From a virus, in UHGV virus genome UHGV-0265688: DNA of 45,713 bases. One strand, 5' to 3'. The number at the start of each line of letters is the position of its first letter. The first letter of the stretch is position 1. The position numbers and the translations under genes are program-made. The notes beneath the pieces are model-generated. The model searched no databases, was not told where the DNA came from, and was given only the letters and a program-made list of their open reading frames with translations. Shown here piece by piece: positions 6,007-41,485 of this stretch.

Positions 6007-6474
6007 ATGGTTCAAGAATATTGCCGGGGAGACATTTTCTTCATCACAGAAGGTACATACACTGGCTCGGAGCAGAGCGGCGGCAGACCCGGTGTTATCG
6101 TCTCGAACGATCTCGGCAACAAGCACTCGCCCAATGTTGAGGTTGTATTCCTCACCTCACGAGAAAAGAAGCCCATGCCGACCCATGTAGAGGTGCTGTG
6201 CAAAGTTCCGTCTACTGCGCTCTGCGAGAACATTCAGACGGTCTCAAAAGAGCGACTGGACACTTTTATCCGCTCTTGCACTACGAGTGAAATGAAGAAC
6301 ATCGACCATGCGCTCCTGTGTTCGCTCGGTCTTCACGCTCCTGCGGCTGTCGGGGGGGGGACTCAGGTTTCCGCTTCTCCTTCGACAGAGGTTTCAAAGG
6401 CCGAAATCGAGCGGGATTTGTTCAAGAATTTGTATGAACAGCTTTTAGACAAAGTGATGGTGAATAAACCTTGA
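6007..6474 (+). CDS. mazF: MazF/PemK/EndoA-family endoribonuclease toxin with ~45-aa C-terminal extension. No adjacent antitoxin.
   Basis: ATG 6007 after GGGAGGTAATTTT. GDIFFI...GSEQSGGRPGVIVSNDLGNKHSPNVEVVFLTS...PTHVEV...IQTVSKERLDTF closely parallels B. subtilis EndoA/NdoA. Extension begins at a G9 tract (6352-6360). Confidence 0.75.
   Translation: MVQEYCRGDIFFITEGTYTGSEQSGGRPGVIVSNDLGNKHSPNVEVVFLTSREKKPMPTHVEVLCKVPSTALCENIQTVSKERLDTFIRSCTTSEMKNIDHALLCSLGLHAPAAVGGGTQVSASPSTEVSKAEIERDLFKNLYEQLLDKVMVNKP
6352..6360 (+). repeat. G9 homopolymer at the junction of the MazF domain and its C-terminal extension
   Basis: ggg ggg ggg encodes GGG in AAVGGGTQ. Long mononucleotide tract. Candidate slipped-strand or sequencing-error hotspot. 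Confidence 0.6.
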
Positions 6475-6485
6475 ACACTGATGTA

Positions 6486-6936
6486 ATGTTTAGTAGCAAA
6501 ACCGATGATTGGGCAACACCACAAGATTTCTTTGACAAATTGGATTTAGAATTTCAGTTCACACTCGACCCATGCGCCGATCTTCATAACCACAAGTGCG
6601 CTCGGTATTACAACCGGGAGCAGGACGGTCTATCTCATGATTGGGGGGGAACGAGTATTCTGCAATCCCCCATACGGAAAAGAAATCGCAAAATGGGTTC
6701 AAAAATCTTTTGAGGAAAGTCGTAAGAAAAACACGCTCGTGGTTATGCTCATTCCAGCAAGAACTGACACAAAGTATTTTCACGACTTCATATACGGGAA
6801 GGCCGAGATAAGATTCATTCGTGGGCGGTTAAAGTTTGGAAATGCGAAAACCGCCGCTCCCTTCCCCTCCATGGTCGTGATATTCAGAAATGAGGAGGAT
6901 TCCAATGACAGTAACACTCATACAGGCAACGCCTGA
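6486..6936 (+). CDS. dam: Phage Dam-type DNA N6-adenine methyltransferase, interrupted by a frameshift at a G7 tract (6643-6649). Intact ~155-aa reading frame if the tract were G6.
   Basis: Frame A: MFSSKTDDWATPQDFFDKLDLEFQFTLDPCA...SHDWGG. Frame B (+1): ERVFCNPPYGKEIAKWV...LVVMLIPARTDTKYFHDF. NPPY catalytic motif. Removing one G yields SHDWGERVFCNPPYG. Start could also be TTG 6471. Confidence 0.6.
6643..6649 (+). repeat. G7 homopolymer at the dam frameshift point
   Basis: ttggggggga. The two halves of the methyltransferase are in frames 0 and +1 on either side. Confidence 0.6.
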
Positions 6937-7525
6937 CCCCATCGAAACCATTGCGAAAATCGCAAGTATCTGCTATGACAGCGACCCCAAGAACCCGCTC
7001 GGACTGGTGAAACACCTGTACCGCAATGGACATCACAGTGTCTTTGAACACATCTATTTTACCTTCAAAATCGAGGGTATCTCTCGTGCCTGTTCTCACC
7101 AGCTCGTGCGGCACCGGCACTGTAGTTTCACTCAGAGGTCTCAGAGGTACTGTTCCGAGGACGGTTTCAAAGTCGTGTGTCCCGGCACTGTCGTTGCCAT
7201 GGGTGGGCAGTATGACTACGGAGCCGTAGTGAATCGTATCTCAGAGTTTTACGAAGAAGCTCAACAAGTCGGTATTCCCAACGAGGACGCAAGGTACATT
7301 CTCCCCAACGCCTGTGAGACCTCGATGTATCTCTCCTGCAACTTGAGAGAGCTTATTCACATGGCGAACGAGCGACTGTGCATGAGAGCGCAGTGGGAAA
7401 TCCGGGAGCTGGTACAACAGATGGTCTACTGTGTGAACGCTGACCTGTGGTTCATGCTGGTTCCCAAGTGTAAGAGCGGTCGTATTATCTGCAATGACCC
7501 CTGTGGGAAAGTAGGTGCTTTGTGA
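6905..7525 (+). CDS. thyX: Flavin-dependent thymidylate synthase ThyX
   Basis: RBS GAGGAGGA then ATG 6905. HHSVFEH and the RHR...S..Q.SQRY ThyX signature (QLVRHRHCSFTQRSQRY). Start overlaps the dam 3' end. Confidence 0.8.
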   Translation: MTVTLIQATPDPIETIAKIASICYDSDPKNPLGLVKHLYRNGHHSVFEHIYFTFKIEGISRACSHQLVRHRHCSFTQRSQRYCSEDGFKVVCPGTVVAMGGQYDYGAVVNRISEFYEEAQQVGIPNEDARYILPNACETSMYLSCNLRELIHMANERLCMRAQWEIRELVQQMVYCVNADLWFMLVPKCKSGRIICNDPCGKVGAL

Positions 7526-7683
7526 TGGACGAAGGCAATAAAATCTGCCCTCTCTTTTACGCTTCTTCGGAGTGTAACACTCTAAAGGCTTGTGAGTGCC
7601 AGAAAGAGAGATGCGCATGGTGGGTTGAGGATAAACAGAAATGCGCTATTGCAGTAGGAGGTGAACGCAGTCGTGGCAAGTGA
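7525..7683 (+). CDS. 52-aa Cys-rich small protein (MDEGNKICPLFYASSECNTLKACECQKERCAWWVEDKQKCAI...)
   Basis: ATG overlaps the thyX stop (TGATGG). Seven Cys. Below the ORF-track cutoff. 3' end overlaps the primase-helicase start region. Confidence 0.3.
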   Translation: MDEGNKICPLFYASSECNTLKACECQKERCAWWVEDKQKCAIAVGGERSRGK

Positions 7684-9196
7684 TAGAGAGCTTTTTGAAC
7701 TCCGCAACGGAAGGGTTATCATGGACGAAGACCTGTCCGAAAAAATGTATATCATCAAGTCATATCACCCTGAGAAAGCCGATGAAACCAGTTCCGGGTT
7801 TGAATGGTCGGAAATGGGCATGGCAAACCTGTTTGGTATGCTCTACAACCGGGAAGCCCGATACTGCACAGAGCATAAGAGCTGGTACACCTACTTCGAG
7901 GGCGCATGGCGCAAAGACGAGGGGGCAATCCTTGTCTCTGAGAAAATCAAGGACTTTGTGCGGCTGATGATTCTCTACTGCGGGGAGATCGTGGACGATG
8001 AAATCCGAAAAGCCTACACCTCTTTTGTGAACAAAATGGGTGACAGGCGCATGAGGGACAGAATACTCAAAGACGCTACAGGCGAGCTTCGTATCTCTGC
8101 CACTGAGTTTGACGCTGACCCATACCTTATAAACTGTCTGAACGGCACCTACTCCCTCCGGGATTTTTCTTTTCGGGAAGCTAAGTGGGACGATTTTCTC
8201 ACCATGCAGACCAATTTTCGTCACACTGTCCGCAGGGACATCAAGTGTGAACGGTGGGAGCAGTTTATTGACGAAGTTACACAGGGCGATAAGGACAAGG
8301 CCGATTTCCTACAACGCTCCCTTGGTTATTCTATCCTTGGTATGAGCAATGAGGAGTGTATGTTCATTCTTCATGGTAAAACGACCCGTAACGGAAAATC
8401 CACCTTGCTCAACACCATTGAAACCATGCTTGGTGATTACGCCAAGGTTGCACCTGTCGGTATGATCTGCCGGGGAGACAGGCAGAAGGACGCAGAAGCG
8501 GCTTCCCCTACCCTTGCTGGTCTAAAAGGCAAGCGGTTTGTTACCATGTCGGAAAGCAATGAGTACGGTAAACTGGACGAGGAGAAAATCAAGCATTTTA
8601 CAGGCGGTGAAGAAATTTCAGCTCGTGCGCTGTACCAGTCAGCAATCACTTTCAAACCGCAATTTACGCTCTGGCTTTCCTGTAACGACCTGCCCATGGT
8701 GACAGACAAGAGCTTGTTCGCTTCGGAGCGTATCAAGGTTATTGAGTTTAACCGGCACTTCTCCCCCGCCGAGCAGGACACGCACCTTAAAGACGAGCTT
8801 ACTTCTCAGGAAGCCATGAGCGGTATCTTCATGTGGCTGGTGCGTGGGTACATCAAGTACAAAGAGCATGGGCTTACCATGTCGGAGCCGCTAAGGTCTG
8901 TCGTGGCAAGGTATGAGCGAGACAATGACCTTGTGCTCCAATTCCTTGAAAACCGCTGTGTACGGGTTCCAGAGGAAGAATACAACCCGCTTGGTGAGAA
9001 GAATAAGTGGACAACTATCAGAGCCAAAGACCTCTACCAAGCGTTCAAAATATGGGCGAAATCCGAGGGTGCTTATGTACTCTCTGCAAGAAAATTCAAC
9101 TCTGAAATGGAGCGTCACCCTGAGTGGTTTGACCGCAAATCGACTTCCAGCGGTTTCGTAATCTATTGGGGCTTGAAGCTCAAGGAGATAGTGTGA
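7661..9196 (+). CDS. Phage/plasmid primase-helicase, P4/D5 family (D5_N plus SF3 P-loop NTPase)
   Basis: Walker A ILHGKTTRNGKST, Walker B-like VTMSES. Typical D5 C-terminal region. Start ambiguous (GTG 7661/7673 after GGAGGTG, or ATG 7721). Confidence 0.75.
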   Translation: MNAVVASDRELFELRNGRVIMDEDLSEKMYIIKSYHPEKADETSSGFEWSEMGMANLFGMLYNREARYCTEHKSWYTYFEGAWRKDEGAILVSEKIKDFVRLMILYCGEIVDDEIRKAYTSFVNKMGDRRMRDRILKDATGELRISATEFDADPYLINCLNGTYSLRDFSFREAKWDDFLTMQTNFRHTVRRDIKCERWEQFIDEVTQGDKDKADFLQRSLGYSILGMSNEECMFILHGKTTRNGKSTLLNTIETMLGDYAKVAPVGMICRGDRQKDAEAASPTLAGLKGKRFVTMSESNEYGKLDEEKIKHFTGGEEISARALYQSAITFKPQFTLWLSCNDLPMVTDKSLFASERIKVIEFNRHFSPAEQDTHLKDELTSQEAMSGIFMWLVRGYIKYKEHGLTMSEPLRSVVARYERDNDLVLQFLENRCVRVPEEEYNPLGEKNKWTTIRAKDLYQAFKIWAKSEGAYVLSARKFNSEMERHPEWFDRKSTSSGFVIYWGLKLKEIV

Positions 9197-9197
9197 T

Positions 9198-9368
9198 ATG
9201 GAAAATGAGTGCATGATGTGCGACTTTAATGACCCTGACTTCGGCTGTACCTGCCCTTCTTCCGAAATGTGGTACGCTTGCCTTCTTACTCCTGACCCGT
9301 CACCAGAAGATTTTATGACAGAGGAGGATTTTAGCAATGGCACGATACTTCAAACTGATCGAAATTGA
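9198..9368 (+). CDS. 56-aa Cys-rich small protein
   Basis: ATG 9198 overlaps the upstream stop. MENECMMCDFNDPDFGCTCPSS. Below the ORF-track cutoff. Confidence 0.3.
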   Translation: MENECMMCDFNDPDFGCTCPSSEMWYACLLTPDPSPEDFMTEEDFSNGTILQTDRN

Positions 9369-9534
9369 CCGTGATAGTTTTATCGAAGCCACTGGCGAAG
9401 ACTTGGATTGTTATTCTCAGTTGGTTGTTCCTGTAGATGGGTTGGTATATGGCGCAGTCGATGATACCGATGAAGAAGAACTCGCTGTTCCATTGTACAC
9501 TTTTGACACCGCAGTCAACGGCGAGGAGGATTGA
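9337..9534 (+). CDS. small acidic hypothetical protein
   Basis: RBS AGAGGAGGATTTTAGCA then ATG. Confidence 0.4.
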   Translation: MARYFKLIEIDRDSFIEATGEDLDCYSQLVVPVDGLVYGAVDDTDEEELAVPLYTFDTAVNGEED

Positions 9535-9536
9535 TT

Positions 9537-9740
9537 ATGAACGCAAGCTGTATTGACGAAAACGCTAAGTTCAAGCTCTGCCCTTATCGTGTCTACACCG
9601 AAGAACACCCACCTATTCTGCGTGGGAACGGGGCGATCACTACTCAGCAGTTTTATCCCTGTTTGGGAGAAGCGTGTGTTGCGTATCATGTGGGTGTTTG
9701 TCTTAGACTGTCAAAGCGTGTGAAGGAGGTATCGAAATGA
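9537..9740 (+). CDS. small Cys-rich hypothetical protein
   Basis: RBS GAGGAGGATTGATT then ATG 9537. Confidence 0.35.
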   Translation: MNASCIDENAKFKLCPYRVYTEEHPPILRGNGAITTQQFYPCLGEACVAYHVGVCLRLSKRVKEVSK

Positions 9741-9997
9741 AAATCAAAGTTGAGCATGAAGTTTCTCCCGAAAAAGAAACTTGCACTCACGATGGAGACT
9801 TTTGGGGAAAGAGCGTTTGTCGGTATCATACCCACAAGGATAGAACGCATGGTAGAAAGGCTCCTATTGAGCGACACCTGCCCAAATGTACACTGTTTGA
9901 CTGCTGGCTCGAAAAAGATTATATGAAATGCGAAGCCTGTAAAAAGGCGTGTGATAAAGCCGAAGGAGAGAAAGATGTTTGCGATACAAAATATTAA
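9737..9997 (+). CDS. small Cys/His-rich hypothetical protein (putative zinc-binding)
   Basis: RBS GAAGGAGGTATCGAA then ATG. Many C/H residues. Confidence 0.4.
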   Translation: MKIKVEHEVSPEKETCTHDGDFWGKSVCRYHTHKDRTHGRKAPIERHLPKCTLFDCWLEKDYMKCEACKKACDKAEGEKDVCDTKY

Positions 9998-10241
9998 GAC
10001 AGGTAAGTTTGTGTATGGCACAGACTATCGGTATTTCCCTCGACACCAGCGCACAAGCAGAACTCAAATGCGCACATACAACTGTTTGAATCTTGCACGA
10101 GCCGACTTTATCTCTCGTGGGTGTGGTAACGATTACCGCATTGTATGTCTCAAGAGCGTGGAGGTCGAACGAGTGATCGAGTTTGATTCTCCCGATGGAT
10201 ATGAGCTACAAAATGGTGATTGGGGGTCGGACGATGAATGA
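9975..10241 (+). CDS. hypothetical protein
   Basis: ATG 9975 after GAAGGAGAGAAAG. The track's ATG 9951 has no RBS. Confidence 0.35.
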   Translation: MFAIQNIKTGKFVYGTDYRYFPRHQRTSRTQMRTYNCLNLARADFISRGCGNDYRIVCLKSVEVERVIEFDSPDGYELQNGDWGSDDE

Positions 10242-10457
10242 CCTTTTAGGACTGATTGCAGACATCAATCCAACCGAAATTGCGGCACATATCGCAGACG
10301 GAAATCTCGCTGAATGGTGTGAGACTTGGCGGCAGGTAGCGACTGTTGCGGCTGAAAACCTCAAACAATCCGAATAGGATTGAAAAATAATCAAAAACGA
10401 CATTTAGGAAGTAGTCTGGAATGGATTGTCATTTGTCTTTTTGAGAGGTTATGGATG

Positions 10458-10563
10458 AAGTAGTTAAAGTAGTTCAAATCTTGAATTTGCGTAAAAGTCC
10501 TCTATAAGGGGGTCTATATAGTAAAAGTTTACGCAAAAACCGATTTTTAACTACTTTAACTAC
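10458..10563. repeat. Copy A of a ~110-bp palindromic element. Terminal inverted repeats AAGTAGTTAAAGTAGTT / AACTACTTTAACTAC. Inner inverted repeat TTTGCGTAAAAGT / ACTTTTACGCAAAAA around a TATA-rich centre.
   Basis: Near-identical terminal repeats recur at 15009-15117 and 37783-37891. A and C also share the flanking ATAAGAAnAAGAAGAA. Contains a plausible TTGAAT-N16-TATAAG promoter. Confidence 0.7.
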
Positions 10564-10633
10564 GCAATAAGAATAAGAAGAAAGAGGACTCTTTCGGCTC
10601 GAAAAGAGGACTCTCAGAGGAGGTAAAACGACT

Positions 10634-11236: not shown

Positions 11237-11251
11237 CGACTATCGACTATG

Positions 11252-11306
11252 AAACCGCCGCTCGTATTCTCTGGTTTCCACCGGGGAAAAGCGGCGGTTT
11301 TTCTAT
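11252..11306 (+). terminator. rho-independent terminator after terS
   Basis: AAACCGCCGCT ... AGCGGCGGTTTTTCTATT stem-loop with T tract. Confidence 0.6.
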
Positions 11307-11516: not shown

Positions 11517-11747
11517 ATGAGAAAATACGAATTGATCCCGGCAGACGGTAGAAAAAGCTTTTACGGGAAAGCGGTTGTAATTGTGGAGGACAACGGGACA
11601 GAAACGCTATACAGCTACGGAACGCCCATTATTAAAAGGCTTGTTTCCGGGGAATTAGTCAAGCTGTGGAGCGATTGGACAGCAACGACAGGCCGACACA
11701 TTAAAGCGTTTTGCGGATTGAGCAAAGCGGAATATATGAGCTTGTAA
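11517..11747 (+). CDS. hypothetical protein
   Basis: RBS AACGGAGGTTTTCAAA then ATG. Composition shifts here (GGG, CGG, CCG codons, A-runs). Confidence 0.45.
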   Translation: MRKYELIPADGRKSFYGKAVVIVEDNGTETLYSYGTPIIKRLVSGELVKLWSDWTATTGRHIKAFCGLSKAEYMSL

Positions 11748-13592: not shown

Positions 13593-13668
13593 CCCCGCCC
13601 AATATAGGCGGGGTTTTTCTACGCCCTCTATAATCGGCCTGTAATGCCCTGTAGAGGGCTTTTTTATT
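13593..13668 (+). terminator. two tandem rho-independent terminators ending the cargo operon
   Basis: CCCCGCCCaatataGGCGGGGTTTTTCT followed by GCCCTCTAtaatcggcctgtaatgccctgTAGAGGGCTTTTTTATT. Confidence 0.65.
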
Positions 13669-13689
13669 ATGGGGGGTGTTCCTATACCC

Positions 13690-13960
13690 GGCTATTATAT
13701 GGGCTTGTGTGGCTTGCTATGGGCTTATATACAAGGGCTTTATATAAGGGGCTTTATATTGTGATCGTTGCTTTATTGTGTGGGCTTGTTATGTTGTGCG
13801 CCTGTGTTCTTGCGTTTCTCTATTATGTTCTTGTGTTATGGGCTTGTGTGTTGTGTTCCTGTGTGCGCTATGGGATAATATAGCGGCTTGCGCTGTCCTG
13901 CATTGTGGGCGGCTTGTTTGGTGTCGTTGGGGTGTCCTCTATTGGGTATTATGATAATGC
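13690..13960. repeat. GT-rich noncoding region with about 7 iteron-like copies of (T)ATGGGCTT(GTGTG/ATATA). Candidate origin or recombinase/terminase binding array.
   Basis: TATGGGCTTGTGTGG, CTATGGGCTTATATA, GGGCTTTATATAA x2, GTGTGGGCTTGTTATG, TTATGGGCTTGTGTG, CTATGGGATAATATAG. The ORFs predicted here (13644-13883, 13888-14139) are low-complexity artefacts. Confidence 0.5.
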
Positions 13961-31845: not shown

Positions 31846-33780
31846 ATGAGCTGGGCAGAAGCAAAATGGGTGGTAGATAATATCCTGCAAAAGACAGGAC
31901 AGGCACCCAACAACATGAGAGCGTTTACCGCTTTCGCAAAATCCAGCACCACCATTGGGCTGAGATTTCTGGAACCCGAAGACAGCTATGACAGCGTAGG
32001 TAATCTGCTCTGTTCGGTCGGCGGCGTAATGATTCGCATGGGTGAAGATGGCTACCCCGCCAGCACCACCGAAGGTACGCTGGTTATCGACAACAAAGAG
32101 CTTGGAAAATATGCAACCGAGGAGTACACCGTGAGCGGTCTGACCGAGGGGAAGACCTACTACTTCTCCGCTTTCCCGTATTCCTCTCAGGGCGTGTACA
32201 ACCTGTCAAGCAATGAGAAAAACCGGGCGAGTGCCGCTCCTGCCGATGGGGAAACGGCAAATGTCACCATCAACATTGACGATGACAGCGCATTTAACAG
32301 CGTCACAATCACCTGTGTGGACGAGACGGACGGGCAGTACACCAAGACCGCCACTCTCACCAAGACGCAGAAAAAGGCTTCTTTCACCGTCCCCATCGGA
32401 CACACCTATCACATCGAGTACGGTGCGGAGGACGGGTATTCCAAGCCTGAGAACACCGAAGTCAAGGTGTCTGTGGCGGGTGCTGTATCGAACTATGAAG
32501 CAACCTACTACTATTTTACCGCCACCATTGATGTCACCTACCCGGCAGGAGCGACCTGTACCTGCTCCCTCGATAGCACGACCTATACCGCAACCGGCAC
32601 CAGCGGCAGGTATCAGTTCAAGGTACACAAGGTCGGCACATGGACTGTGAAAGCGACCAGCGGCGGCGAGTCCGCTTCCGAGCAGGTTGTGATTACATCG
32701 GATGGGCAGAGCGAAACGGTGGAGCTGTCTTTTGTGAAAATCTTCGGTATCAGCCGGGATATTAAAGCGTCCTCCCCTGTGTGGGCGAGAACCGACATGG
32801 CAGTGGGCATGACCGCCACCGCTTCTATCGGCACAAACGCAGGTCACAGCGATTTCGATGATGTCATGCCTTGGAAGGGCATGGTGCGGGAAACCCTCTC
32901 TACCAACGATGTGATGGTGAAAATCCCGAAATTCTACTACCGCCGCTATCGTGAGGGGACGGTTGAGCACATTCAGATCGCAGACAAGCCTACGGCTGGT
33001 TTCTCGGTACACCCCCTGTTCAATCACGCAGGTCGGGAGTGCGACCATGCCTATGTGGGTGCGTACAAGACTTCCAGCAACAATAAATCCGTCTCCGGGG
33101 CAAGTCCGCAAGCGTCACAGACAAGAGCCACTTTCCGCAGTAACGCCAAGGCGAAGGGCGCAGGATGGAGCCTGATTGACATTGCGGCGGTGTCTGCCAT
33201 TCAAATGCTCATGCTGGTGGAGTTTGCAAACAACAATGTGCAGAGCGTTATTGGCAGAGGATATTGTGACGGAAGCAGCGGCTCGCTGAGAACCGGGTCT
33301 TGCAACAGCGTTCCCAACCTCACCGGCAGACCTTCTGGCACAGACGGTAAGACCGGAGTTGTCTACAGAGGTATCGAGGACTTCTGGGGCAATGTATGGG
33401 AATGGGTCGATGGCGTGAACTGGAACGGCGGCACTTACTACATCTGCAACGACCCTTCCAAGTACGCTGACGATACTGCAACCGGCTACACTCAGCTTTC
33501 CTTCAAGGGAGCGACAAACTGGGGTAGCTCCTATATCACCGAGGAGGGTCTGGACACCGGGGCAAATCCCCATGTCATGCTTCCTTCTGCGGCTGGTAGC
33601 GGCAGTGAGTCCACTTATATGTGTGACGCTTGTTGGAGTAGCACAGGATGGCGGGTGTTCCGGCACGGCGGTTATTGGGTTAATGGGTTGGAGTGCGGTC
33701 TGTTTACGGCTGATTTGTACTACACTTCGTCTGATTCCGGCGCGCGCGTTGGCTCTCGCCTGCTTTATATCCCCTCCTGA
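31846..33780 (+). CDS. Tail fiber / receptor-binding protein with C-terminal C-type-lectin / FGE-sulfatase-like domain. This is the target gene of the diversity-generating retroelement (DGR).
   Basis: ATG overlaps the upstream stop (TAAATGAG). C-terminal RGIEDFWGNVWEWVDG is the FGE/CLec-fold signature, the fold used by DGR variable proteins such as Bordetella phage Mtd. The last ~40 codons are the variable repeat. Confidence 0.7.
   Translation: MSWAEAKWVVDNILQKTGQAPNNMRAFTAFAKSSTTIGLRFLEPEDSYDSVGNLLCSVGGVMIRMGEDGYPASTTEGTLVIDNKELGKYATEEYTVSGLTEGKTYYFSAFPYSSQGVYNLSSNEKNRASAAPADGETANVTINIDDDSAFNSVTITCVDETDGQYTKTATLTKTQKKASFTVPIGHTYHIEYGAEDGYSKPENTEVKVSVAGAVSNYEATYYYFTATIDVTYPAGATCTCSLDSTTYTATGTSGRYQFKVHKVGTWTVKATSGGESASEQVVITSDGQSETVELSFVKIFGISRDIKASSPVWARTDMAVGMTATASIGTNAGHSDFDDVMPWKGMVRETLSTNDVMVKIPKFYYRRYREGTVEHIQIADKPTAGFSVHPLFNHAGRECDHAYVGAYKTSSNNKSVSGASPQASQTRATFRSNAKAKGAGWSLIDIAAVSAIQMLMLVEFANNNVQSVIGRGYCDGSSGSLRTGSCNSVPNLTGRPSGTDGKTGVVYRGIEDFWGNVWEWVDGVNWNGGTYYICNDPSKYADDTATGYTQLSFKGATNWGSSYITEEGLDTGANPHVMLPSAAGSGSESTYMCDACWSSTGWRVFRHGGYWVNGLECGLFTADLYYTSSDSGARVGSRLLYIPS
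33647..33766 (+). repeat. DGR variable repeat (VR) at the 3' end of the tail fiber gene
   Basis: Gap-free ~120-bp alignment to 33861-33980 (offset 214). 22 mismatches lie at TR adenine positions; 1 mismatch is not at an A. Confidence 0.8.
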
Positions 33781-33785
33781 GGGGG

Positions 33786-33808
33786 TGTGGGGGATTTCCT
33801 CCCCCACA
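33786..33808 (+). other. GC-rich hairpin immediately downstream of VR (TGTGGGGGA-tttcc-TCCCCCACA)
   Basis: Perfect 9-bp stem 6 nt after the tail-fiber stop. DGR target sites commonly carry such a hairpin/cruciform downstream of the initiation-of-mutagenic-homing region. Confidence 0.55.
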
Positions 33809-33860
33809 TAAGTGGGCGAACACACCGTATTGAAAATCGAAACACGCTAAGGCGAACAGT

Positions 33861-33980
33861 AAAAGCGAGTGTTCCAACACGGCAGTAATTGGAATAATGG
33901 GTCGAAATGCGGTCTGTTTACGGCTAATTTGAACAACACTTCGTCTGATTCCAACACGAACATTGGCTCTCGCCTACTTT
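33861..33980 (+). repeat. DGR template repeat (TR), noncoding, A-rich (AAC-codon-phased) copy of the VR
   Basis: See VR. TR has A where VR has G/T/C at 22 positions (for example CCAACACGAACATT versus CCGGCGCGCGCGTT). Lies between the target gene and the reverse transcriptase. Confidence 0.8.
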
Positions 33981-34095
33981 TGTTAAAAGGTAATATCATT
34001 GGTCGCTGTTTCGCCGTACCCATTGGTAAAAAATAGTTTGGAGGGACAGGGTTAGTAGGTTCACTCTCGAAAACCCTGTAAGAAACAAAAAGCAG

Positions 34096-35193
34096 ATGAA
34101 AAGGTTTGGATTCCTCTATGAACGGATAGTTTCAGTGGAAAATTGCAGACTGGCTATCCTCAACGCTTCTCAAAAGAAGAAAAAGCGAAAAATGGTGAAA
34201 GAAGTCCTTGATAATTTGGAGCATTACGCCAACGACCTTTCCGAGCGAATGAGCCGCATGGATTTTCTCTCCCCATATAAGACCCGTATCATCAAGGACG
34301 GGTTATCTGGAAAAGAACGGGAACTGCAAGTCCCAGCGTTCTACCCCGACCAGTGCGCACACCACGCCATTATGCAGATTCTCAAGCCGATTATTGAGAA
34401 ATCGTCCTACCGATGGAGTTGCGCCAATATCCCCAACCGGGGCATTGACCTTGCTTGCAAGGGTGTGGAGAGAGCCACTGTGCGGGACAGGAAACACGCT
34501 AAATATTGCGTGAAAATGGACATTAGCAAGTTCTACCCGTCTATTCCTCATGGCAAGCTGAAAGCCCGACTGCGAGAGAAAATCAAAGACGAAAAGGCTT
34601 TGCAAATCATCTTCAAGGTGATTGACTCCCACAATCCGGGGCTTCCCATCGGGAACTATACTTCCCCTTGGCTGGCAGAACTATACTTGCAACCGCTGGA
34701 TTACCTTATCAAGCAAAAGCACCGAATACGACACTATATCCGCTACGCTGACGATCTGGTGCTGATAGACAGCAATAAACGAAAACTGAGGAAAGCTCTT
34801 CACGACATTTTCCTATTTGTGGAGGAGCTGGGCATGACAGTGAAACACGACTACCAGTTGTTTCGTATTCAGCCATACTGCAAGGAACGGACAGGCCGCA
34901 GGGGACGGAAGATAGATTTTGTAGGGAGGTGTTTCGGAATTGGTTTTACCACCATCCGAAAGAGGAGGGCGTTGGCACTTATGCGGCAGAGCAGGTTTAT
35001 TCAGAAGCTACAGCGGCAGAACCGGCCTGTCTCATACAGAATGGCTTCCGGGTTTCTCTCCCGGTGCGCCTGTTTCAAGCACACCAATTCATACGCCATG
35101 AAGAAAAAGTACTATGAAACGGTCAACATCAAAAAGTTAAAGGAGGTTGTTAGCAATGAGAGTAAGAGGAAATGTCTCGCCCAACTCGCTTAG
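34096..35193 (+). CDS. DGR-type reverse transcriptase
   Basis: N-terminus FLYERIVSVENCRLAILNASQKKKKRK typical of DGR RTs. Motifs QVPAFYPDQ, SPWLAELYL (SP.LAN-like), catalytic YADD (IRYADDLVLI). Confidence 0.8.
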   Translation: MKRFGFLYERIVSVENCRLAILNASQKKKKRKMVKEVLDNLEHYANDLSERMSRMDFLSPYKTRIIKDGLSGKERELQVPAFYPDQCAHHAIMQILKPIIEKSSYRWSCANIPNRGIDLACKGVERATVRDRKHAKYCVKMDISKFYPSIPHGKLKARLREKIKDEKALQIIFKVIDSHNPGLPIGNYTSPWLAELYLQPLDYLIKQKHRIRHYIRYADDLVLIDSNKRKLRKALHDIFLFVEELGMTVKHDYQLFRIQPYCKERTGRRGRKIDFVGRCFGIGFTTIRKRRALALMRQSRFIQKLQRQNRPVSYRMASGFLSRCACFKHTNSYAMKKKYYETVNIKKLKEVVSNESKRKCLAQLA

Positions 35194-35895: not shown

Positions 35896-35916
35896 ACACA
35901 GAGAGGACAACAGGAA

Positions 35917-36240: not shown

Positions 36241-36243
36241 ACC

Positions 36244-37194
36244 ATGGCCTACACAAACAGTCCGTTGGTGAGCTACACAAAGCTGTCACCAAACCATTCC
36301 GGGCAGAGGACGCACAGCATTGACCGAATTACTCCTCACTGCGTTGTGGGGCAGTGTTCGGTGGAAACGCTGGGGAACATCTTCTTGCCCACTTCCAGAC
36401 AAGCAAGCTGTAACTACGGTATTGGTTCTGACGGCAGAGTCGGTATGTACTGCGAGGAGAAGAACCGCTCGTGGTGTTCTTCCAGCAATGCAAACGACCA
36501 GAGAGCCGTTACCATCGAGTGCGCTTCCGACACCTCCGCTCCCTATGCGTTCAAAACGGTTGTCTACAACAAGCTCATTGACTTGTGTGTGGACATCTGC
36601 AAGCGCAACGGCAAAAAGAAACTGCTCTGGCTGGAGGACAAAAACAAGACGCTGAATTACAACCCGAAAACCGATGAAATGGTACTCACCGTTCACCGCT
36701 GGTTCGCCAATAAAAGCTGTCCCGGCGATTGGATGTACAATCGCATGGGAGACCTCGCTAAGGCCGTCACAGAGCGTCTGAGCGGCGTTTCTGGTGGAGG
36801 TAGTACAACTACACCCCCTACCTCTAAAACGCTCTACAGAGTGCGTAAGAGCTGGTCTGACGCTAAGAGCCAGATTGGTGCTTACTCTGTTCTGGAAAAC
36901 GCCAAGAAACAGGCCGACTTGAACCCCGGATATGAGGTGTATGATGAAAACGGTAAAGTGGTATATGGTGGTAAGACCGCCGTGACAACCCCATTCAAAC
37001 CGTACACTGTGCGTGTGACAATTCCTGATTTATATATCCGCAAGGGAGCGGGTACGAATTACGGAACCAACGGCTTCATCAAGCCGGGTGTCTACACCAT
37101 CGTGGCAGAGCAGAGCGGTCAGGGTGCTTCCAAGTGGGGCAAGCTGAAATCCGGGGCTGGCTGGATTTCTCTTGACCATGCGAAGAAGCTCTAA
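36244..37194 (+). CDS. Endolysin: N-acetylmuramoyl-L-alanine amidase (Amidase_2-type) plus C-terminal SH3b cell-wall-binding repeats
   Basis: N-terminal catalytic region with conserved H/C. C-terminal YTVRVTIPDLYIRKGAGTNYGTNGFIKPGVYTIVAEQSGQGASKWGKLKSGAGWISLDHAKKL is a typical SH3_3/SH3b. Confidence 0.7.
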   Translation: MAYTNSPLVSYTKLSPNHSGQRTHSIDRITPHCVVGQCSVETLGNIFLPTSRQASCNYGIGSDGRVGMYCEEKNRSWCSSSNANDQRAVTIECASDTSAPYAFKTVVYNKLIDLCVDICKRNGKKKLLWLEDKNKTLNYNPKTDEMVLTVHRWFANKSCPGDWMYNRMGDLAKAVTERLSGVSGGGSTTTPPTSKTLYRVRKSWSDAKSQIGAYSVLENAKKQADLNPGYEVYDENGKVVYGGKTAVTTPFKPYTVRVTIPDLYIRKGAGTNYGTNGFIKPGVYTIVAEQSGQGASKWGKLKSGAGWISLDHAKKL

Positions 37195-37493
37195 TGGCAA
37201 GGCGCAGACGGAAGAAGCAAAGACCCGCTTCGGAGTTTTCCAAGAAAATCGTGGTCGCAGTTTTCGCTATCAACATCGTGGTGATCGCTTTCACTCTGAT
37301 AATGATATGGCGCACAAACGACCTCTCTCCGCTGGCTTACCTCATACCAGCCGTTGCCGCTGAGACCGCAACGGGGACAGGCTTCTATTACGCAAAAGCC
37401 AAAGTGGAAAACCGCATAAAGCTGATGAAGCATTACGACATCACGCCAACCGAACAATCTTTTAACGAACAAGGAGGATATTACAATGGTTGA
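37194..37493 (+). CDS. small membrane protein with basic N-terminus and two transmembrane helices (holin/antiholin-like)
   Basis: ATG overlaps the endolysin stop (TAATGG). TM helices IVVAVFAINIVVIAFTLIMIW and LAYLIPAVAAE. Confidence 0.45.
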   Translation: MARRRRKKQRPASEFSKKIVVAVFAINIVVIAFTLIMIWRTNDLSPLAYLIPAVAAETATGTGFYYAKAKVENRIKLMKHYDITPTEQSFNEQGGYYNG

Positions 37494-37788
37494 CCTTACC
37501 CCTATCATCACCGCAGTTCTGACCCTCATTTTCTCGCTGATTACCGCTTTCCTCATTCCCTATATCAAGACCAAGGTGAGTGCGGAACAATTCGCCACCA
37601 TCAAGCTGTGGGTGCAGGTCGCTGTACAGGCGGCAGAAATGCTCTATGTCGGTAGCGGCAGAGGAGAGGAAAAGAAGAAATATGTGATTGAGTTTCTGAA
37701 CAGCAAGGGGTTCACGCTGAACGCAGAGGAGATTGAAAACCTCATTGAATCCGCTGTCTTGGAGCTGAAACAGTCGCAGGTAAAGTAG
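37486..37788 (+). CDS. Holin, LL-H family
   Basis: RBS ACAAGGAGGATATTACA then ATG. N-terminal TM helix AVLTLIFSLITAFLIPYIK followed by LWVQVAVQAAEMLYVGSGRGEEKKKYV, typical of the LL-H holin family. TAG stop lies inside element C. Confidence 0.6.
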   Translation: MVDLTPIITAVLTLIFSLITAFLIPYIKTKVSAEQFATIKLWVQVAVQAAEMLYVGSGRGEEKKKYVIEFLNSKGFTLNAEEIENLIESAVLELKQSQVK

Positions 37789-37891
37789 TTAAAGTAGTTC
37801 AAAATCGGTTTTTGCGTAAACTTTCTCTATATACACGCGTACTATGCAAAAGTTACACGCAAAAACCAAAGAACAACTACTTTAACTACTT
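37783..37891. repeat. Copy C of the ~110-bp palindromic element, between the lysis module and the serine integrase gene. Candidate attP.
   Basis: AAGTAGTTAAAGTAGTTC ... GAACAACTACTTTAACTACTT with inner TTTTTGCGTAAAC / TTACACGCAAAAA and a central CTCTATATACACGCGTACTATGC. Followed by ATAAGAACAAGAAGAA as in copy A. Confidence 0.7.
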
Positions 37892-37927
37892 GTATAAGAA
37901 CAAGAAGAATAATTTACAAACAAAACA

Positions 37928-37958
37928 AGAGGAGGTGGGCGTTTAACCTACCTCCTCT
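37928..37958. terminator. bidirectional hairpin terminator (AGAGGAGGTgggcgtttaACCTACCTCCTCT) overlapping the integrase stop codon
   Basis: 9-bp GC-rich stem. T-rich on the minus strand beyond it (GTTTTGTTTGTAAATTATT). Confidence 0.5.
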
Positions 37959-39490
37959 ATATTCATAACAAACCCGAAACAGTGTTTTACAAAAAACAAG
38001 GTGTTCGGATTTGCACCTTTTGGTGGAGCCACACACGCTATATCCGAACACGAAAGTGTAGCTGTATTCTGTCCTGACATATTGAAGGTAAATACGATTC
38101 TTCTCCCCTTATCCCCATCGTCATAGATATATACGGAGTTCACCAGTGTGTCTATCACTCTGCGTCTGTACTCAATATCATTCACATTACCACTCTTGAA
38201 CGAATTGAGCCAGTGCATTATGCGCTCTTTCGTCAGGAGTGGTTTTTTCATTTCCTCACGAGCAATCTTCCCCTCCAAGTCGTTCTTCTCAGCTTCCAGC
38301 TCGTCCATTCGTTCCTTGGTGGTGGGTGTGATTATCCCCTGTTCGATGGCGTTCATGAGGTTTTTTATTTTCTTCTTAATGTCTTTCAGCTCGTTTTGAA
38401 GTCCGTTGAGGTAAGAGGTGTCAGCCGACTCCTTTTCGATAATCTCCATGGTCTTTCTGGCAATACGCTCTATGGTTTCATCATTCAATACATTTTGAAC
38501 GGTGAACCGCACCACCAGCTCCTCTATCCAATCCTTTTTCTCCACCGCCTTTTTGCACTTGTGATTTCGCTTACGGTCAATGCACTTGTAGTAGTGGTGG
38601 AGCTTGCCCGATCTGGAAGTGCCGCTTTCTCCGACCATGGAGGAGCCGCAATGACCGCAGAACAATTTTGTGGTGAGAAGATAATCGTCTTTAGCCTTAT
38701 TCCTCGCACGAGCCGAATAGTTGTGCCTGAGAGTGGCTTGGACTTTCTCAAATAACTCCCGGCTTATGATAGGCGGCACACCGTCCTCTACCACAACATC
38801 TGCGAAACGGTAGACCCCGATATACCTGTCGTTTTTCAGCATTGTGCGCAGACTGTTTTTGTTAAAGGCGTTCCCTCGTGAGGTTTTATACCCTCGTCTG
38901 TTGCACTCGTTGATAATCTGAGTTGCCGACATACCATCTGCATACATCTGAAAGATTTCTTGTACAATTTTCGCCCCAACGGGGTCGATTTTATACTTTC
39001 TATCTTCCCCTACAGTGTAGCCCAAGGGCATACCTGCCCCTCCTACGGCAAGGCACTGTAGGGCATTTTCTTTTAATCCTCGCTTGATGTTCCGGGACAG
39101 GTTCTCTGAATAGTATTCTGCGTACCCTTCCAGCACTGATTCCAGGATAATCCCTTCCGGGGTATCAGGCATGGGCTGTTTGGCGTAATAGACTTTCACG
39201 CCATTCTTTTTCAGCTTTGCTTTGTAAATAGCTGAATCATATCGGTTTCGGGCAAAGCGGTCAAGGGTGTACATTATCACCGCTTCAAATTGCCCCTTTT
39301 CACTGTCCTTTATGAGCCTTTGAAAGTTTGGACGATTATCGGTTTTACCTGAGATTGCTCTGTCGCAATATTCACCGATGATCGTCATTCCATTTTTCAG
39401 TGCAAAGTCGTGACACTCACGGAGCTGTCCCTCTATGGATTCCTCTCTCTGGTTATGGCTCGAATATCTGGCATAGATTACCGCTTTCGT
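37943..39490 (-). CDS. Large serine recombinase (phage integrase). No canonical start codon upstream of the catalytic serine.
   Basis: Minus-strand frame reads ...TTKAVIYARYSSHNQREESIEGQLRECHDFALKNGMTIIGEYCDRAISG then recombinase domain and a zinc ribbon (CGHCG...YYKC) with coiled-coil. The track starts at ATG 39388, downstream of the YARYSS active site. RBS GGAGGTGAT at 39493-39501. Codons between it and YAR are ACT ACG AAA GCG GTA ATC, with an in-frame TAA at 39512-39514. Confidence 0.65.
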   Translation of the reverse strand, partial: TKAVIYARYSSHNQREESIEGQLRECHDFALKNGMTIIGEYCDRAISGKTDNRPNFQRLIKDSEKGQFEAVIMYTLDRFARNRYDSAIYKAKLKKNGVKVYYAKQPMPDTPEGIILESVLEGYAEYYSENLSRNIKRGLKENALQCLAVGGAGMPLGYTVGEDRKYKIDPVGAKIVQEIFQMYADGMSATQIINECNRRGYKTSRGNAFNKNSLRTMLKNDRYIGVYRFADVVVEDGVPPIISRELFEKVQATLRHNYSARARNKAKDDYLLTTKLFCGHCGSSMVGESGTSRSGKLHHYYKCIDRKRNHKCKKAVEKKDWIEELVVRFTVQNVLNDETIERIARKTMEIIEKESADTSYLNGLQNELKDIKKKIKNLMNAIEQGIITPTTKERMDELEAEKNDLEGKIAREEMKKPLLTKERIMHWLNSFKSGNVNDIEYRRRVIDTLVNSVYIYDDGDKGRRIVFTFNMSGQNTATLSCSDIACVAPPKGANPNTLFFVKHCFGFVMNIEEVG

Positions 39491-39511
39491 AGTATCACCT
39501 CCAAGTGCTTC

Positions 39512-39901
39512 TTATGCCTGAGCAATTCTATGGGGATTATCCTCGCTGTGCGTAGAAGATTCTTTATCCCCCTCTAATTCCTCTCGGTTTTCAAATTCGT
39601 ACACCATAGCCATGAACTCATGCTTGGTTCGTCTGGAAAGCGAGCGATAGACCCTGAGAATGTCTTTCTCGTCCTCGTTTTGCGGCTCATTCTGCGGCGC
39701 AAGGTCTTCTTCGTCCATGAAGAAATCGAGGACGGAACAATGCAGTATCTTTGCCATTTCCACCATTTCATCTTCTTTCGGGAGCGACCCCTTATTGATG
39801 GCACTGGTGAATGAGGATGAGCCTTTGACCTGCTTCACGACAGCGGTGAGATTTGTCCCACGCTGAATACAAATTCGATTGATGTTTTCTCTGAAAGACA
39901 T
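39512..39901 (-). CDS. cI-like XRE-family repressor (N-terminal HTH, acidic C-terminal domain)
   Basis: Minus-strand RBS AAAGGAGAATCGTT then ATG 39901. HTH IQRGTNLTAVVKQV. Divergent from the Cro-like gene across an operator-rich region. Confidence 0.6.
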   Translation of the reverse strand: MSFRENINRICIQRGTNLTAVVKQVKGSSSFTSAINKGSLPKEDEMVEMAKILHCSVLDFFMDEEDLAPQNEPQNEDEKDILRVYRSLSRRTKHEFMAMVYEFENREELEGDKESSTHSEDNPHRIAQA

Positions 39902-39952
39902 AACGATTCTCCTTTCACAAATTTTAATTCTGATTTTTTTGAATTTATCTAT

Positions 39953-40107
39953 TGACAATTCGTGAAAGAAGAACTATAATAAGACCAAGAAGTTCGGGAT
40001 TTACGAATTGGCAATAAGAAACCGACCCCCTTGAAAGTGGCAATTTCGAGGAGGAGCGAGGATTGAGTAGTCCTATAAGAATAATAACATCAATTCGCTT
40101 TGTTGTC
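39953..40107 (+). promoter_or_regulatory. Genetic switch region: perfect sigma70 promoter TTGACA-N17-TATAAT (39953-39981) with three CAATTCG-containing operator half-sites
   Basis: ACAATTCGTG at 39957, CGAATTGG (inverted) at ~40006, TCAATTCGCT at ~40097. CAATTCGT / ACGAATTG form an inverted repeat pair spanning the promoter. Confidence 0.55.
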
Positions 40108-40149
40108 AAGGTAATTCCTGTTTTCTGAATTGCGAAAGGAGGTAAAAAT

Positions 40150-40344
40150 ATGAGCCACATTCAGGAACGAATGAAGAAGCTCGGTGTCAAGCAGGTGGAT
40201 TTGATTCTCGAACTGCGTAAGCGAGGTATCACAGTTCAGCCGCCCGAAATGTCGAGCATTATCCGGGGTGTCTACACCTACCCAAAGGCAAAGGTGGTTC
40301 TTGATGAATGTGACAAAATCCTCTCTGAATGTGAATCTCAGTGA
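40150..40344 (+). CDS. Cro-like HTH regulator
   Basis: RBS GAAAGGAGGTAAAAAT then ATG. HTH KKLGVKQVDLILELRKRGITV. 64 aa. Confidence 0.55.
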   Translation: MSHIQERMKKLGVKQVDLILELRKRGITVQPPEMSSIIRGVYTYPKAKVVLDECDKILSECESQ

Positions 40345-40480
40345 TTCACAGATTACAGACCTCGCAAGACCACTGGTGGGTATTTTGCAGAAGTTCTACG
40401 AAGACCCGAAAAATGAGGAGGATTTTCAAAAATGGCTACGCAATGTAGAGAAAGCAAAAGAAAACCAAGACGCAACCTGA
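40304..40480 (+). CDS. small hypothetical protein (overlaps both neighbours; doubtful)
   Basis: ATG 40304 after AAGGTGGTTCTTG. 58 aa. Confidence 0.25.
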   Translation: MNVTKSSLNVNLSDSQITDLARPLVGILQKFYEDPKNEEDFQKWLRNVEKAKENQDAT

Positions 40481-41079
40481 TACGCCTGTATGGTGTTCTC
40501 GTAGGGTTGGCGGTCGCAGGAATGGCAATGGGCTTTGCCGTTGGGAAATTCACCACCCCGCAGAAAACGGTGACAATCACCGAGAAGGTGGAAGTCCCGG
40601 TGTATGAGTCTGGTGCGCTCCCCGAAAACGCAGATGTGTTTCTGTATGACATTCCGTTATCAGATTCTTTGCAGAGATACATTTACGAAATTTGCGCAGA
40701 GAAAAGCGTCCCGGTAACGCTGGCTCTTGCCATGATTGAGCATGAGAGCGGCTTCAACCCGGAAGTTGTCAGTTCCACAAACGATTACGGTCTCATGCAG
40801 ATCAACGCTGTAAACCATGGCTGGCTTGAGGAGCAATACCGAACCGCAGACTTCCTCAACCCTTATCAGAACGCTTTTTGCGGTATCACGATTATTGGCG
40901 GTTACATCGAAAAATATGGTGATTATGGCAAGGCTCTGATGGCGTACAACATGGGCGATTATGGAGCGCAAAAGGCTTGGGAAAGCGGAGTTACCAACAC
41001 AAATTACTCCTCCACGATTCTTGAGCTTATGCAAGAGTACGAGGAGGTGTCACGCAATGCCAAGCACGATGGAGCTTAA
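40432..41079 (+). CDS. Membrane-anchored lytic transglycosylase (SLT domain)
   Basis: RBS GAGGAGGATTTTCAAAA then ATG. N-terminal TM helix LIRLYGVLVGLAVAGMAMGFAV. SLT catalytic motif ...EHESGFNPE...YGLMQINAVNHGW. Confidence 0.65.
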   Translation: MATQCRESKRKPRRNLIRLYGVLVGLAVAGMAMGFAVGKFTTPQKTVTITEKVEVPVYESGALPENADVFLYDIPLSDSLQRYIYEICAEKSVPVTLALAMIEHESGFNPEVVSSTNDYGLMQINAVNHGWLEEQYRTADFLNPYQNAFCGITIIGGYIEKYGDYGKALMAYNMGDYGAQKAWESGVTNTNYSSTILELMQEYEEVSRNAKHDGA

Positions 41080-41485
41080 AGATACTTCTATGGCTATCAG
41101 GGGGGGGCAAGTGAAATCGGGCGAAAGGGTGCGATTGCCAAAATCATTCTACGAACACCCTCTGACTGCAAAAGAAGCGCAATTTGCCGAAGATAATCTT
41201 TACATTGTCTGGTGGTACTTGGATCGGCGGGGACTTGACCGGGAGGAATGGTTCGATGTAGTGATTTTACGCTATCTGATAAGTGTAAAACGGTGGTTTG
41301 CCCTCCCCGATTTGCAAAAAGTGAAGTTCGTCACTGTGGCCTGTAATGCTATGAAATCAGCCATCGGAAATGAATGGCACAAAAGGGCTAATGAACCTAA
41401 GATTGTTAGCTTATATGAATCTATTCCCGGAACAGATGATTTGCTGTATATCGACACAATAGCGGCTTCGGAGATTTTTTTTTAA
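41056..41485 (+). CDS. Sigma-70 region-2-like (ECF-like) small protein, possible late-gene regulator
   Basis: RBS GAGGAGGTGTCACGCA then ATG. AEDNLYIVWWYLDRRGL...EEWFDVVILRYLISVKRW...VACNAMKSAIGNEWHKRANEPK parallels the ECF sigma region 2 pattern (DLVQE.FL..W..LD.F....F..WL..IARN..ID..RRR). No region 4 evident. G8 tract at 41100-41107 near the 5' end. Confidence 0.35.
41100..41107 (+). repeat. G8 homopolymer inside the 5' end of the sigma-like gene
   Basis: atcaggggggggcaag encodes RGG. Third long G tract in the window. Confidence 0.55.

Follow-up and report, generated by a model that had tools for sequence, protein, structure and literature searches.

Contingency loci are already known from phages, including Campylobacter phages and the T-even phages among others, and phase-variable methylases are already known from bacteria. 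Hypermutable polyG tracts in Campylobacter phages are attributed to Sorensen et al. (2021, Cell Rep 35:109214) by a later paper (PMC12823448), and a recent preprint describes agt and rIIA as contingency loci of T2 and T4 (Gomez, Barrick & Waters 2025, PMC12633550). The bacterial phasevarions of Haemophilus, Neisseria, Helicobacter, and Moraxella involve Type III mod or Type I hsdS genes (PMC6902483, PMC5700931). In Helicobacter canadensis, homopolymeric tracts switch the C-terminal sequence of proteins (PMC2823697). Also, PamA is a Dam-like methylase from a prophage of Staphylococcus aureus (Ulrich et al. 2025, as cited in PMC13076061). We did not find any published phase-variable phage Dam, any switching of a MazF tail, or any antitoxin-like tail at the C terminus of a MazF, nor did we find a published report of such tracts in prophages of gut Firmicutes. 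Here, we argue that long homopolymer tracts in the virus genome UHGV-0265688 are likely to act as slipped-strand contingency loci of a temperate phage of Lachnospiraceae. The sequence that we studied is a single strand of 45,713 nt, and we refer to this entire stretch as the window.

The tracts affect three genes: a mazF-like gene, a dam gene, and a gene whose product resembles region 2 of sigma factors. An earlier note on this sequence had described three long G runs, whose coordinates are exact, and we found a fourth variable run, of T, that was absent from it. Each of these runs is a homopolymer of about 7 nt or more that lies within an open reading frame (ORF) or at its 5' end. The runs and the genes are as follows:

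6352-6360, plus strand: nine G (G9), at the junction between the MazF domain and its tail.
6643-6649, plus strand: seven G (G7), in dam, in the codons for W-G-G-E.
41100-41107, plus strand: eight G (G8), 3 nt 5' of the GTG at 41111 and within the ORF that is open from the ATG at 41057.
41475-41483, plus strand: nine T (T9), at the stop codon of the sigma-like gene.
6007-6474, plus strand: mazF-like gene, whose product has its PemK/MazF domain in residues 1 to about 113, followed by a Gly-Gly-Gly linker from G9 and a conserved acidic/helical tail of 37 amino acids.
6471-6713, plus strand: N-terminal part of dam, in frame 0, with a premature stop at 6711-6713 given G7.
6650-6936, plus strand: C-terminal part of dam, within a frame +1 ORF (6637-6936), with the NPPY motif; intact and out of frame.
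41057-41485, plus strand: sigma-region-2-like gene, long form from the ATG at 41057, 142 amino acids, in frame in the window.
41111, plus strand: GTG start of the short core form of the sigma-like protein, 124 amino acids.

We gathered relatives of the window in four ways: from IMG/VR by protein, from metagenomes and IMG/VR by a DNA pattern that was agnostic to tract length, from species genomes, and from ENA/Logan assemblies by exact neighboring proteins. Tract lengths differ among these relatives, which favors slipped-strand variation over error, and they are polymorphic even among genomes that are otherwise near identical. Among pairs whose substitutions stay below 0.2% over 1.1-1.46 kb, the dam tract differs in 25 of 42 and the mazF tract in 30 of 38, and pairs that are 8-30% diverged do not differ at the tracts any more often than this. 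For example, some loci have no substitutions over 1.46 kb, yet their mazF tracts range from G7 to G11 and their dam tracts from G8 to G10. L241, a contig from the Joint Genome Institute (JGI), matches the window at 99.9% identity over 20.4 kb; it differs by four indels, of which the mazF and dam tracts account for two. L267 and L272, also 99.9% identical, have one indel each in 18-20 kb, and in both cases it is the dam tract. Across seven genomes that are 99.9% identical, the sole shorter run that changed is an A5 in L241. Another contig, L265, is 99.99% identical and shares the G9 and G7 of the window while its third tract is G9 instead of G8. If we call an allele ON when its length is in frame with the conserved downstream sequence and OFF otherwise, then all four combinations of mazF and dam states occur, at about the same frequency (4, 4, 4, and 5 contigs).

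Sequencing or assembly error, with one true length per tract and an intact dam, was the other explanation that the earlier note had offered. Homopolymers are indeed error prone, several of the contigs have just 2-9x coverage, and long A/T runs vary too. But at least six other assemblies, which differ in sample and assembler, show the pairing of G9 with G7 as well (L265, L269, L271, L274, and L248/L256, which are independent Illumina-type assemblies), so the G7 is not an error of this assembly. A contig with 22.8x coverage, L267, carries G8. The lengths span 7-11 for the G tracts and 6-12 for the T tract, and gaps of 2-6 nt (G7 versus G11, or T6 versus T12) exceed plausible read error. OFF alleles make up around 55-65% of contigs, which is far above the consensus error rate. 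Furthermore, errors cannot produce the conservation of the tracts, the codon choice within them, or the bimodal spectrum of run lengths that we describe below. Error seems very improbable to us and is ruled out as the main cause, and slipped-strand variation is favored.

As had been proposed, the G7 of the window splits dam: frame 0 (6471-6713) gives way to frame +1 (6637-6936, from ERVFCNPPYG onward), and the window is OFF for dam. The repair that had been suggested, which is to delete one G, did not hold up. The in-frame allele that occurs naturally is G9 (SHDWGGERVF), which is ON and is present in 12 of 35 contigs, along with G7 in 8, G8 in 11, and G10 in 4. G6 is in 0 of the 35, so we ruled it out as a natural state. 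With G9, the gene encodes a Dam of 155 amino acids, while G7, G8, and G10 all yield a fragment of 80 amino acids that lacks the catalytic half. The repaired protein scores 117.2 bits against PF05869 (the cut-off is 28.1) and 96.7 bits against TIGR01712, which is slightly below the cut-off of 97.05. When repaired to G9, it also matches the orphan methyltransferase PDLC03726 of PADLOC from end to end (positions 1-139 of 140; 6.7e-70). The catalytic motif (N/D)PP(Y/F) is present as NPPY, directly 3' of the tract and in the +1 frame in the window. Judging from these matches, the product would be a phage-type orphan N6-adenine methyltransferase, and we presume that it targets GATC, the site of the characterized members of this family. 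Its TTG start codon overlaps the stop codon of mazF (cTTGA), so the frame of mazF may influence the translation of dam; this is speculation.

Might dam instead be a decaying pseudogene that was lost in the window's lineage, with a tract that is a mere mutational hot spot and that wanders neutrally between G7 and G8? In support of this idea, dam is OFF in 10 of the 11 contigs that encode the window's exact MazF. Also, dam is accessory: it is missing from many relatives, in which mazF directly adjoins thyX. And the W-G-G-E codons readily give a G run, with G7-G8 at the same spot in distant homologs of Dam. What we would not expect of a pseudogene is the state of the OFF alleles. After resetting the tract to G9, 23 of 23 OFF contigs encode a full-length Dam (155 or 156 amino acids) with no second lesion, and these repaired proteins are 99-100% identical to the ON alleles. 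Nor would we expect ON alleles to be in about a third of contigs, or the tract to be neither interrupted nor shorter than G7 in any contig. Furthermore, the much older tract of mazF behaves alike. A neutral hot spot or pseudogene is plausible for dam alone and does not fit mazF, and we think that it is unlikely to be the explanation. As a separate observation, a database protein (P0030) is a chimera of 152 amino acids in which the MazF domain is fused to the middle of Dam (SLGLH is followed directly by NHKCARYY, and DWGGGTSIL comes later). It arose by a deletion between two short repeats, and its dam tract is G10.

Of the tracts, that of mazF is the oldest and the clearest case. The ORF scores 70.1 bits against PF02452 (the cut-off is 23.1), and an alignment of residues 6-113 covers the MazF proteins of S. 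aureus and Bacillus subtilis from end to end, so the tract is 3' of the end of the fold. The Arg of GGRPG and the Thr of FLTS align with the RP and IT of those proteins, and we take this Arg and Thr to be catalytic, as in B. subtilis MazF. The protein thus has the PemK/MazF fold, and a cognate antitoxin, as in type II modules, is not apparent: there is no antitoxin Pfam among the neighbors of mazF in the window or in the relatives that we examined. Upstream is a 120-nt promoter gap and then a PriCT primase gene, and downstream is either dam or thyX.

The earlier note had suggested that the G9 makes the MazF tail switchable, and the length of the tract does decide whether the conserved tail is made. 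G6, G9, and G12 are in frame with the tail; G8 and G11 lead to a junk tail; and G7 and G10 lead to an early stop right after GGGD. The window, with G9, is ON for the tail. So in both dam and mazF, a change in length switches the frame and the product, and there is a functional in-frame length, which is G9 for each. Among 17 contigs of the window's clade that were selected by pattern, mazF has G7 in 1, G8 in 1, G9 in 8, G10 in 6, and G11 in 1. More broadly, the tract is present at the same codons, at G7-G11, in 30 loci from several clades whose helicases are 76-99% identical, and lengths across diverged phage lineages range from G6 to G12. The flanks of the tract have diverged (cctgcggctgtc, gccgttgtc, tcgcccgtt, or tttcctgtc), and yet its glycines are always encoded by GGG, though GGG accounts for 15.5% of the glycine codons in the genome.

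The frame that G9 selects is the conserved one. Eight residues of the tail are invariant among 69 homologs (E133, E135, L138, K140, L142, Y143, E144, and L147, in the motif E.ER.LYK.LYEQLL), while the products of the other two frames 3' of the tract are unconserved. In all of the OFF mazF alleles, the tail is intact once the tract is reset. Linkers of GG, GGG, and GGGG all occur in protein databases, as do frameshifted forms and linkers that are interrupted (GEG, VGG, and GMG); these last look like locked-ON alleles. In more distant homologs, this tail follows an ordinary, non-glycine linker, so the tail is ancestral and the hypermutable linker was acquired later. The acidic/helical tail could be a cis-acting regulatory element, possibly an antitoxin-like one; a search of the tail profile against PDB sequences returned nothing meaningful. 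Because tail-less alleles are common in assemblies, tail-less MazF is not simply lethal to lysogens. As an aside, L241 has a 15-nt tandem duplication (GTTTCAAAGGCCGAA) at its position 10386 (window position 6391), which adds EVSKA to its out-of-frame mazF tail.

The 120-nt gap on the 5' side of mazF contains a strong promoter-like site for this gene:

5927-5955, plus strand: sigma-70-type site, TTGACA-17-TATTAT, TG-extended, 11 of 12 matches.

A perfect inverted repeat of 12 nt (cacgaaaaagat / atctttttcgtg, at about 5895-5906 and about 5937-5948) flanks the -35 hexamer of this site, and may be an operator or else the terminator of the primase gene.

The third G tract is not a plain ON/OFF switch: whatever the frame, the GTG on its 3' side gives the core protein. 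An N-terminal extension of 18 amino acids is in frame with G8 and G11, and other lengths leave the GTG-started core. The commonest annotated form, at 123 amino acids (129 contigs), has the GTG 3' of the tract as its start. Both G8 and G11 forms exist in the window's clade, where the peptide MPSTMELKDTSMAIRGG(G)Q is conserved across the tract. The 11 contigs with an identical upstream SLT protein have G7 in 1, G8 in 4, G9 in 4, G10 in 1, and G11 in 1. Some 50 relatives that are more distant have a run of G8-G14 (the mode is G10) between the stop codon of another gene and the start codon, and in most of these there is an in-frame stop directly before the start codon, with the tract being intergenic or in the 5' untranslated region. 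Since the G run is kept 5' of the gene even in distant relatives, it is a conserved 5' feature of the sigma-like gene. The same run is probably also the purine stretch to which ribosomes bind for the GTG start. A scan for promoters around the third tract found no site, so phase variation of a promoter spacer has no support. We also note that 5 of 50 related contigs end near the third tract (3 within 3 nt and 2 more within about 60 nt), while about 0.3 would be expected by chance. This is consistent with assembly graphs that break at a heterogeneous site.

At the other end of the gene, the T run is T6 in 4, T7 in 2, T9 in 4, and T12 in 1 of the 11 contigs that share the SLT protein. T6, T9, and T12 end the protein with EIF, EIFF, and EIFFF; T8, which is found in a database protein, adds KRR; and T7 fuses the sigma-like gene with the next ORF to give 241 amino acids. 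As for the label of sigma-like, which also came from the earlier note, it is acceptable as a description of a fold that resembles sigma region 2, and the sequence does not place the protein in any sigma family. The AlphaFold model is confident, with a predicted local distance difference test score (pLDDT) of 88.9, and nearly all of the top 50 Foldseek matches in PDB are sigma factors, of which the best is the N-terminal domain of SigE (template modeling scores normalized by the target of 0.67-0.75, with weak E-values of 0.07-0.3). We found no match for the protein in Pfam, NCBIfam, PADLOC, or PDB sequences, including the profiles for sigma regions 2 and 4, and a profile of its family found nothing in PDB or Pfam. 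It does belong to PHROG 37022, which is annotated as unknown function. No region-4-like domain fits within 124 amino acids. Separately, the sigma-like gene and the next ORF (94 amino acids) form a cassette at 41083-41782, in place of which L242 and L273, which are otherwise collinear, have an ORF of 56 amino acids. This site marks a mosaic junction beside the G tract.

A further rival is recoding at the level of expression: whatever the genotype, both protein forms would come from the G run by ribosomal frameshifting or by slippage of RNA polymerase, the length of the DNA could then drift, and its polymorphism would be a by-product. Runs of 9 or more are known sites of RNA polymerase slippage, as in the A9 of Thermus dnaX and the poly-A rescue of endosymbiont genes. 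Under relaxed constraint, it would be expected that all three frames are common, and recoding would also account for the long tract that distant relatives keep in the 5' untranslated region of the sigma-like gene. However, RNA polymerase slippage is best documented on A/T runs and not on G runs, and the products of the alternative frames are unconserved. Ribosomal frameshifting is unlikely because near-identical genomes carry G7, which needs a +1 shift, and G8, which needs a -1 shift; no single shift would rescue both. With such opposite shifts, a length that is not fixed, and alternative tails that are unconserved, we rejected a programmed ribosomal frameshift site. Overall, recoding strikes us as quite unlikely, and transcriptional slippage may nevertheless blur the phenotypes.

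The earlier note had also called G runs of this length (7 or more) improbable in coding DNA of roughly 50% GC. On composition alone, they are not: independent and identically distributed or first-order models expect 2.7-2.9 G runs of at least 7 nt in the window, 0.7 of at least 8, and 0.2 of at least 9, so the count of G runs is not significant. It is the empirical spectrum of run lengths that is abnormal. The window has 94 runs of G4, 16 of G5, and then 1 each of G6, G7, G8, and G9, and it has no C runs of 6 or more. Across 1.69 Mb of related loci, the numbers of G runs of length 5, 6, 7, 8, 9, 10, and 11 are 234, 17, 7, 12, 20, 6, and 3, so that the distribution is bimodal, with a second rise at 8-10. 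In contrast, C runs in the same 1.69 Mb simply dwindle (425, 8, 1, 1, and 2 for lengths 5 through 9). A chance origin of the tracts, although not rejected on composition, is rejected on the empirical run-length spectrum together with the conservation of the tracts. As controls, we considered other runs across all of the related loci, where A7, T7, and T8 are mostly constant and A8, T9, and C8-9 vary; this comparison cannot separate behavior that is specific to G from behavior that depends on length, and the 99.9%-identical genomes are more informative.

Other runs are worth recording. In the relatives that were found via the sigma-like gene (L082-L132), gggttccagcaa and atcaagttcccg are separated by G7-10 in 27 loci, G9-10 lies directly 3' of atgaacaataaaacctttc, C8-10 lies directly 3' of atgtatgcacctaata, and C7-10 lies 5' of gcccggtg. 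These G and C runs are conserved and vary in length, which suggests that the wider phage group may carry many homopolymer switches. The A5/A6 difference at 11552-11556 breaks an ORF of 76 amino acids in L241. Also, near-identical genomes show a 14-nt deletion, along with several small indels, in the region around 13600-13750, which contains T6 and G6 runs.

To return to slipped-strand contingency loci, the mechanism that we propose is that mispairing during replication would add or drop a base in the runs far more often than ordinary mutation does, and the phage population would thereby always contain heritable and reversible variants. The lengths are polymorphic, they set the frame, the tracts are conserved, and the OFF alleles are intact; from this we infer that replication slippage is the cause, that the changes are reversible, and that they are adaptive. 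Slippage would switch dam between full Dam (at G9) and a product with no catalytic half (at G7, G8, or G10). It would switch mazF between MazF with the tail (at G6, G9, or G12) and tail-less MazF (at other lengths), and so would control the presence of a cis-acting element. In the sigma-like gene, G8 or G11 would add the N-terminal extension, and the T run would alter the C terminus or fuse the next ORF.

Our best guess for the function of dam is hedging against restriction. Turning the methylase ON or OFF would hedge between hosts that cut unmethylated sites and hosts that cut methylated sites, and in lysogens, the switch could also toggle the methylation of the host. Several short palindromes are extremely depleted from the genome: ACGT occurs 0 times as compared to an expectation of 97, CTAG 0 times as compared to 40, and GATC 55 times as compared to 146 (a ratio of 0.38). 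GGCC is at 0.30 of expectation, and there is just 1 CCWGG site in the window. Given this depletion, the phage is under strong restriction pressure.

A bolder reading, which we regard as doubtful, is that this is a widespread prophage of the human gut with its own small phasome, in which a prophage-borne phasevarion Dam and a single-chain MazF that arms and disarms itself are translationally coupled. The poly-G switch would make methylation bistable in both the lysogen and the virion, which would also hedge against restriction. The tail of MazF would be a built-in antitoxin on a hypermutable Gly-Gly-Gly linker, and slippage would arm or disarm the toxin.

Several points weigh against our view that the tracts are contingency loci. 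First, long A/T runs (A8 and T9) vary too, so variability is a general property of long runs and is not proof of selection. Second, the case for dam is weaker than the others. Selection appears to maintain the tracts of mazF and of the sigma-like gene, while the dam tract is limited to one young clade (86-100% identity), and it would easily arise from the W-G-G-E codons. The 11 contigs with the window's exact MazF comprise 5 with G7 in dam, 5 with G8, and 1 with G9. For the window's own lineage, stochastic ON/OFF switching of dam, one of the two options in the earlier note, is a conjecture, and in this sublineage the pattern looks more like loss than like switching. Third, the contigs come from overlapping collections (IMG/VR, ENA, and Logan) and could include duplicate samples, such as L248 and L256, and with coverage as low as 2-9x for some contigs, a few lengths may have been miscalled. 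Fourth, heterogeneity within a population and reversibility are deduced from comparisons between assembled genomes. Finally, the target site of Dam, the activity of MazF, the function of its tail, and the effect of the third tract on expression are predictions. The AlphaFold model of MazF with its tail has a pLDDT of 51, which makes it unusable for docking the tail, although it suggests a helix at 131-152.

As for the window itself, L241 spans from window position 41720 to 45713 and straight on into position 1 without a break, so the window is a phage genome that is complete and circularly permuted. The phage is temperate and siphovirus-like, and its hosts are Lachnospiraceae of the gut. The sequence is also found within contigs of 109-348 kb, so it is an integrated prophage there. 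NCBI annotates a protein that is one residue off the window's MazF in a metagenome-assembled genome of Gallintestinimicrobium (Lachnospiraceae), which makes this genus a lead as to the host. The assembly collection lists the exact MazF of the window in 130 blocks and the SLT protein in 276. Among the cultured phages in INPHARED, there is no close relative, just matches to dam at about 68% identity and nothing for the third tract. Other features of the genome are:

37943-39388, minus strand: serine recombinase.
cI-like and cro-like genes, with divergent perfect promoters between them.
Replication and recombination genes: helicase, ERF/YqaJ recombination, PriCT primase, ThyX, and a D5-type primase-helicase.
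Virion genes: terminase, portal, and tape measure.
33651-35193: diversity-generating retroelement (DGR), with variable and template repeats and a reverse transcriptase.

The variable repeat of the DGR (33651-33766) is at the 3' end of a gene for a protein of 644 amino acids (31846-33780). It differs from the template repeat (33865-33980) at 20 positions, 19 of which are template adenines, and the reverse transcriptase is at 34096-35193 (PHROG 1423, 4e-86). So the phage has a DGR alongside its homopolymer switches. We also note that the ORF at 3233-3679 matches PF18909 (the N-terminal domain of dATP/dGTP diphosphohydrolase, 2.8e-22). This is a type of nucleotide-pool enzyme that is seen in phages with modified DNA, and we did not notice a PurZ-like gene.

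If switching is real at the level of populations, then an abundant temperate phage of Lachnospiraceae in the human gut uses several independent homopolymer switches, and what they switch would be a DNA-modification gene, a toxin gene, and a regulatory gene, rather than receptor-binding genes. Phage contingency loci would then extend to temperate phages of gut Firmicutes, there would be a natural system in which to study restriction bet-hedging by a phage methylase, and prophages might impose phase-variable methylation on their hosts. For catalogs of the gut virome, the implication is that genes that are frameshifted at G or T runs should not be automatically corrected or dismissed as pseudogenes.

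How does this compare to the known systems? As in the bacterial phasevarions, a repeat tract in a methyltransferase gene would give ON/OFF methylation. But the methylases of phasevarions belong to chromosomal restriction-modification systems of Type I or Type III and have a demonstrated regulon, whereas here we have an orphan phage Dam of 155 amino acids whose neighbors are mazF and thyX, without a partner nuclease and with no nuclease or specificity gene adjacent. So dam may work like a phasevarion in lysogens without being a canonical one. The mazF tract and the T9 are more like those of H. canadensis, in that a tract near the 3' end swaps the C-terminal tail and the protein is kept, although the genes in H. 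canadensis are bacterial, chromosomal, and from unrelated families. As a model for what dam might do in a lysogen, there is PamA, which according to the paper that cites it is an orphan adenine methylase from a prophage that alters the phenotype of its host; that account does not report it to be phase variable. As far as the cited account goes, Campylobacter phages also have G homopolymers in their genes that vary in length and switch the frame, which gives mixed progeny. Those phages are lytic, their tracts are in receptor-binding genes, their host itself uses polyG widely, and their switching was shown experimentally, while ours is a temperate phage of Lachnospiraceae whose tracts are in a methylase, the tail of a toxin, and a regulator and vary among assembled genomes. 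Finally, agt of T2 resembles what we propose for dam, as a homopolymer in a DNA-modification gene flips ON and OFF and so, as was shown by experiment for glucosylation, hedges between restriction systems that attack modified DNA and those that attack unmodified DNA (PMC12633550). In T2 and T4, however, the tracts are A runs of 6-9 with variant frequencies of about 1e-4 to 1e-3, and they were not shown to be conserved as tracts (PMC12633550), while the G7-G11 tracts that we describe are conserved across lineages and the OFF state is in the majority in many samples.

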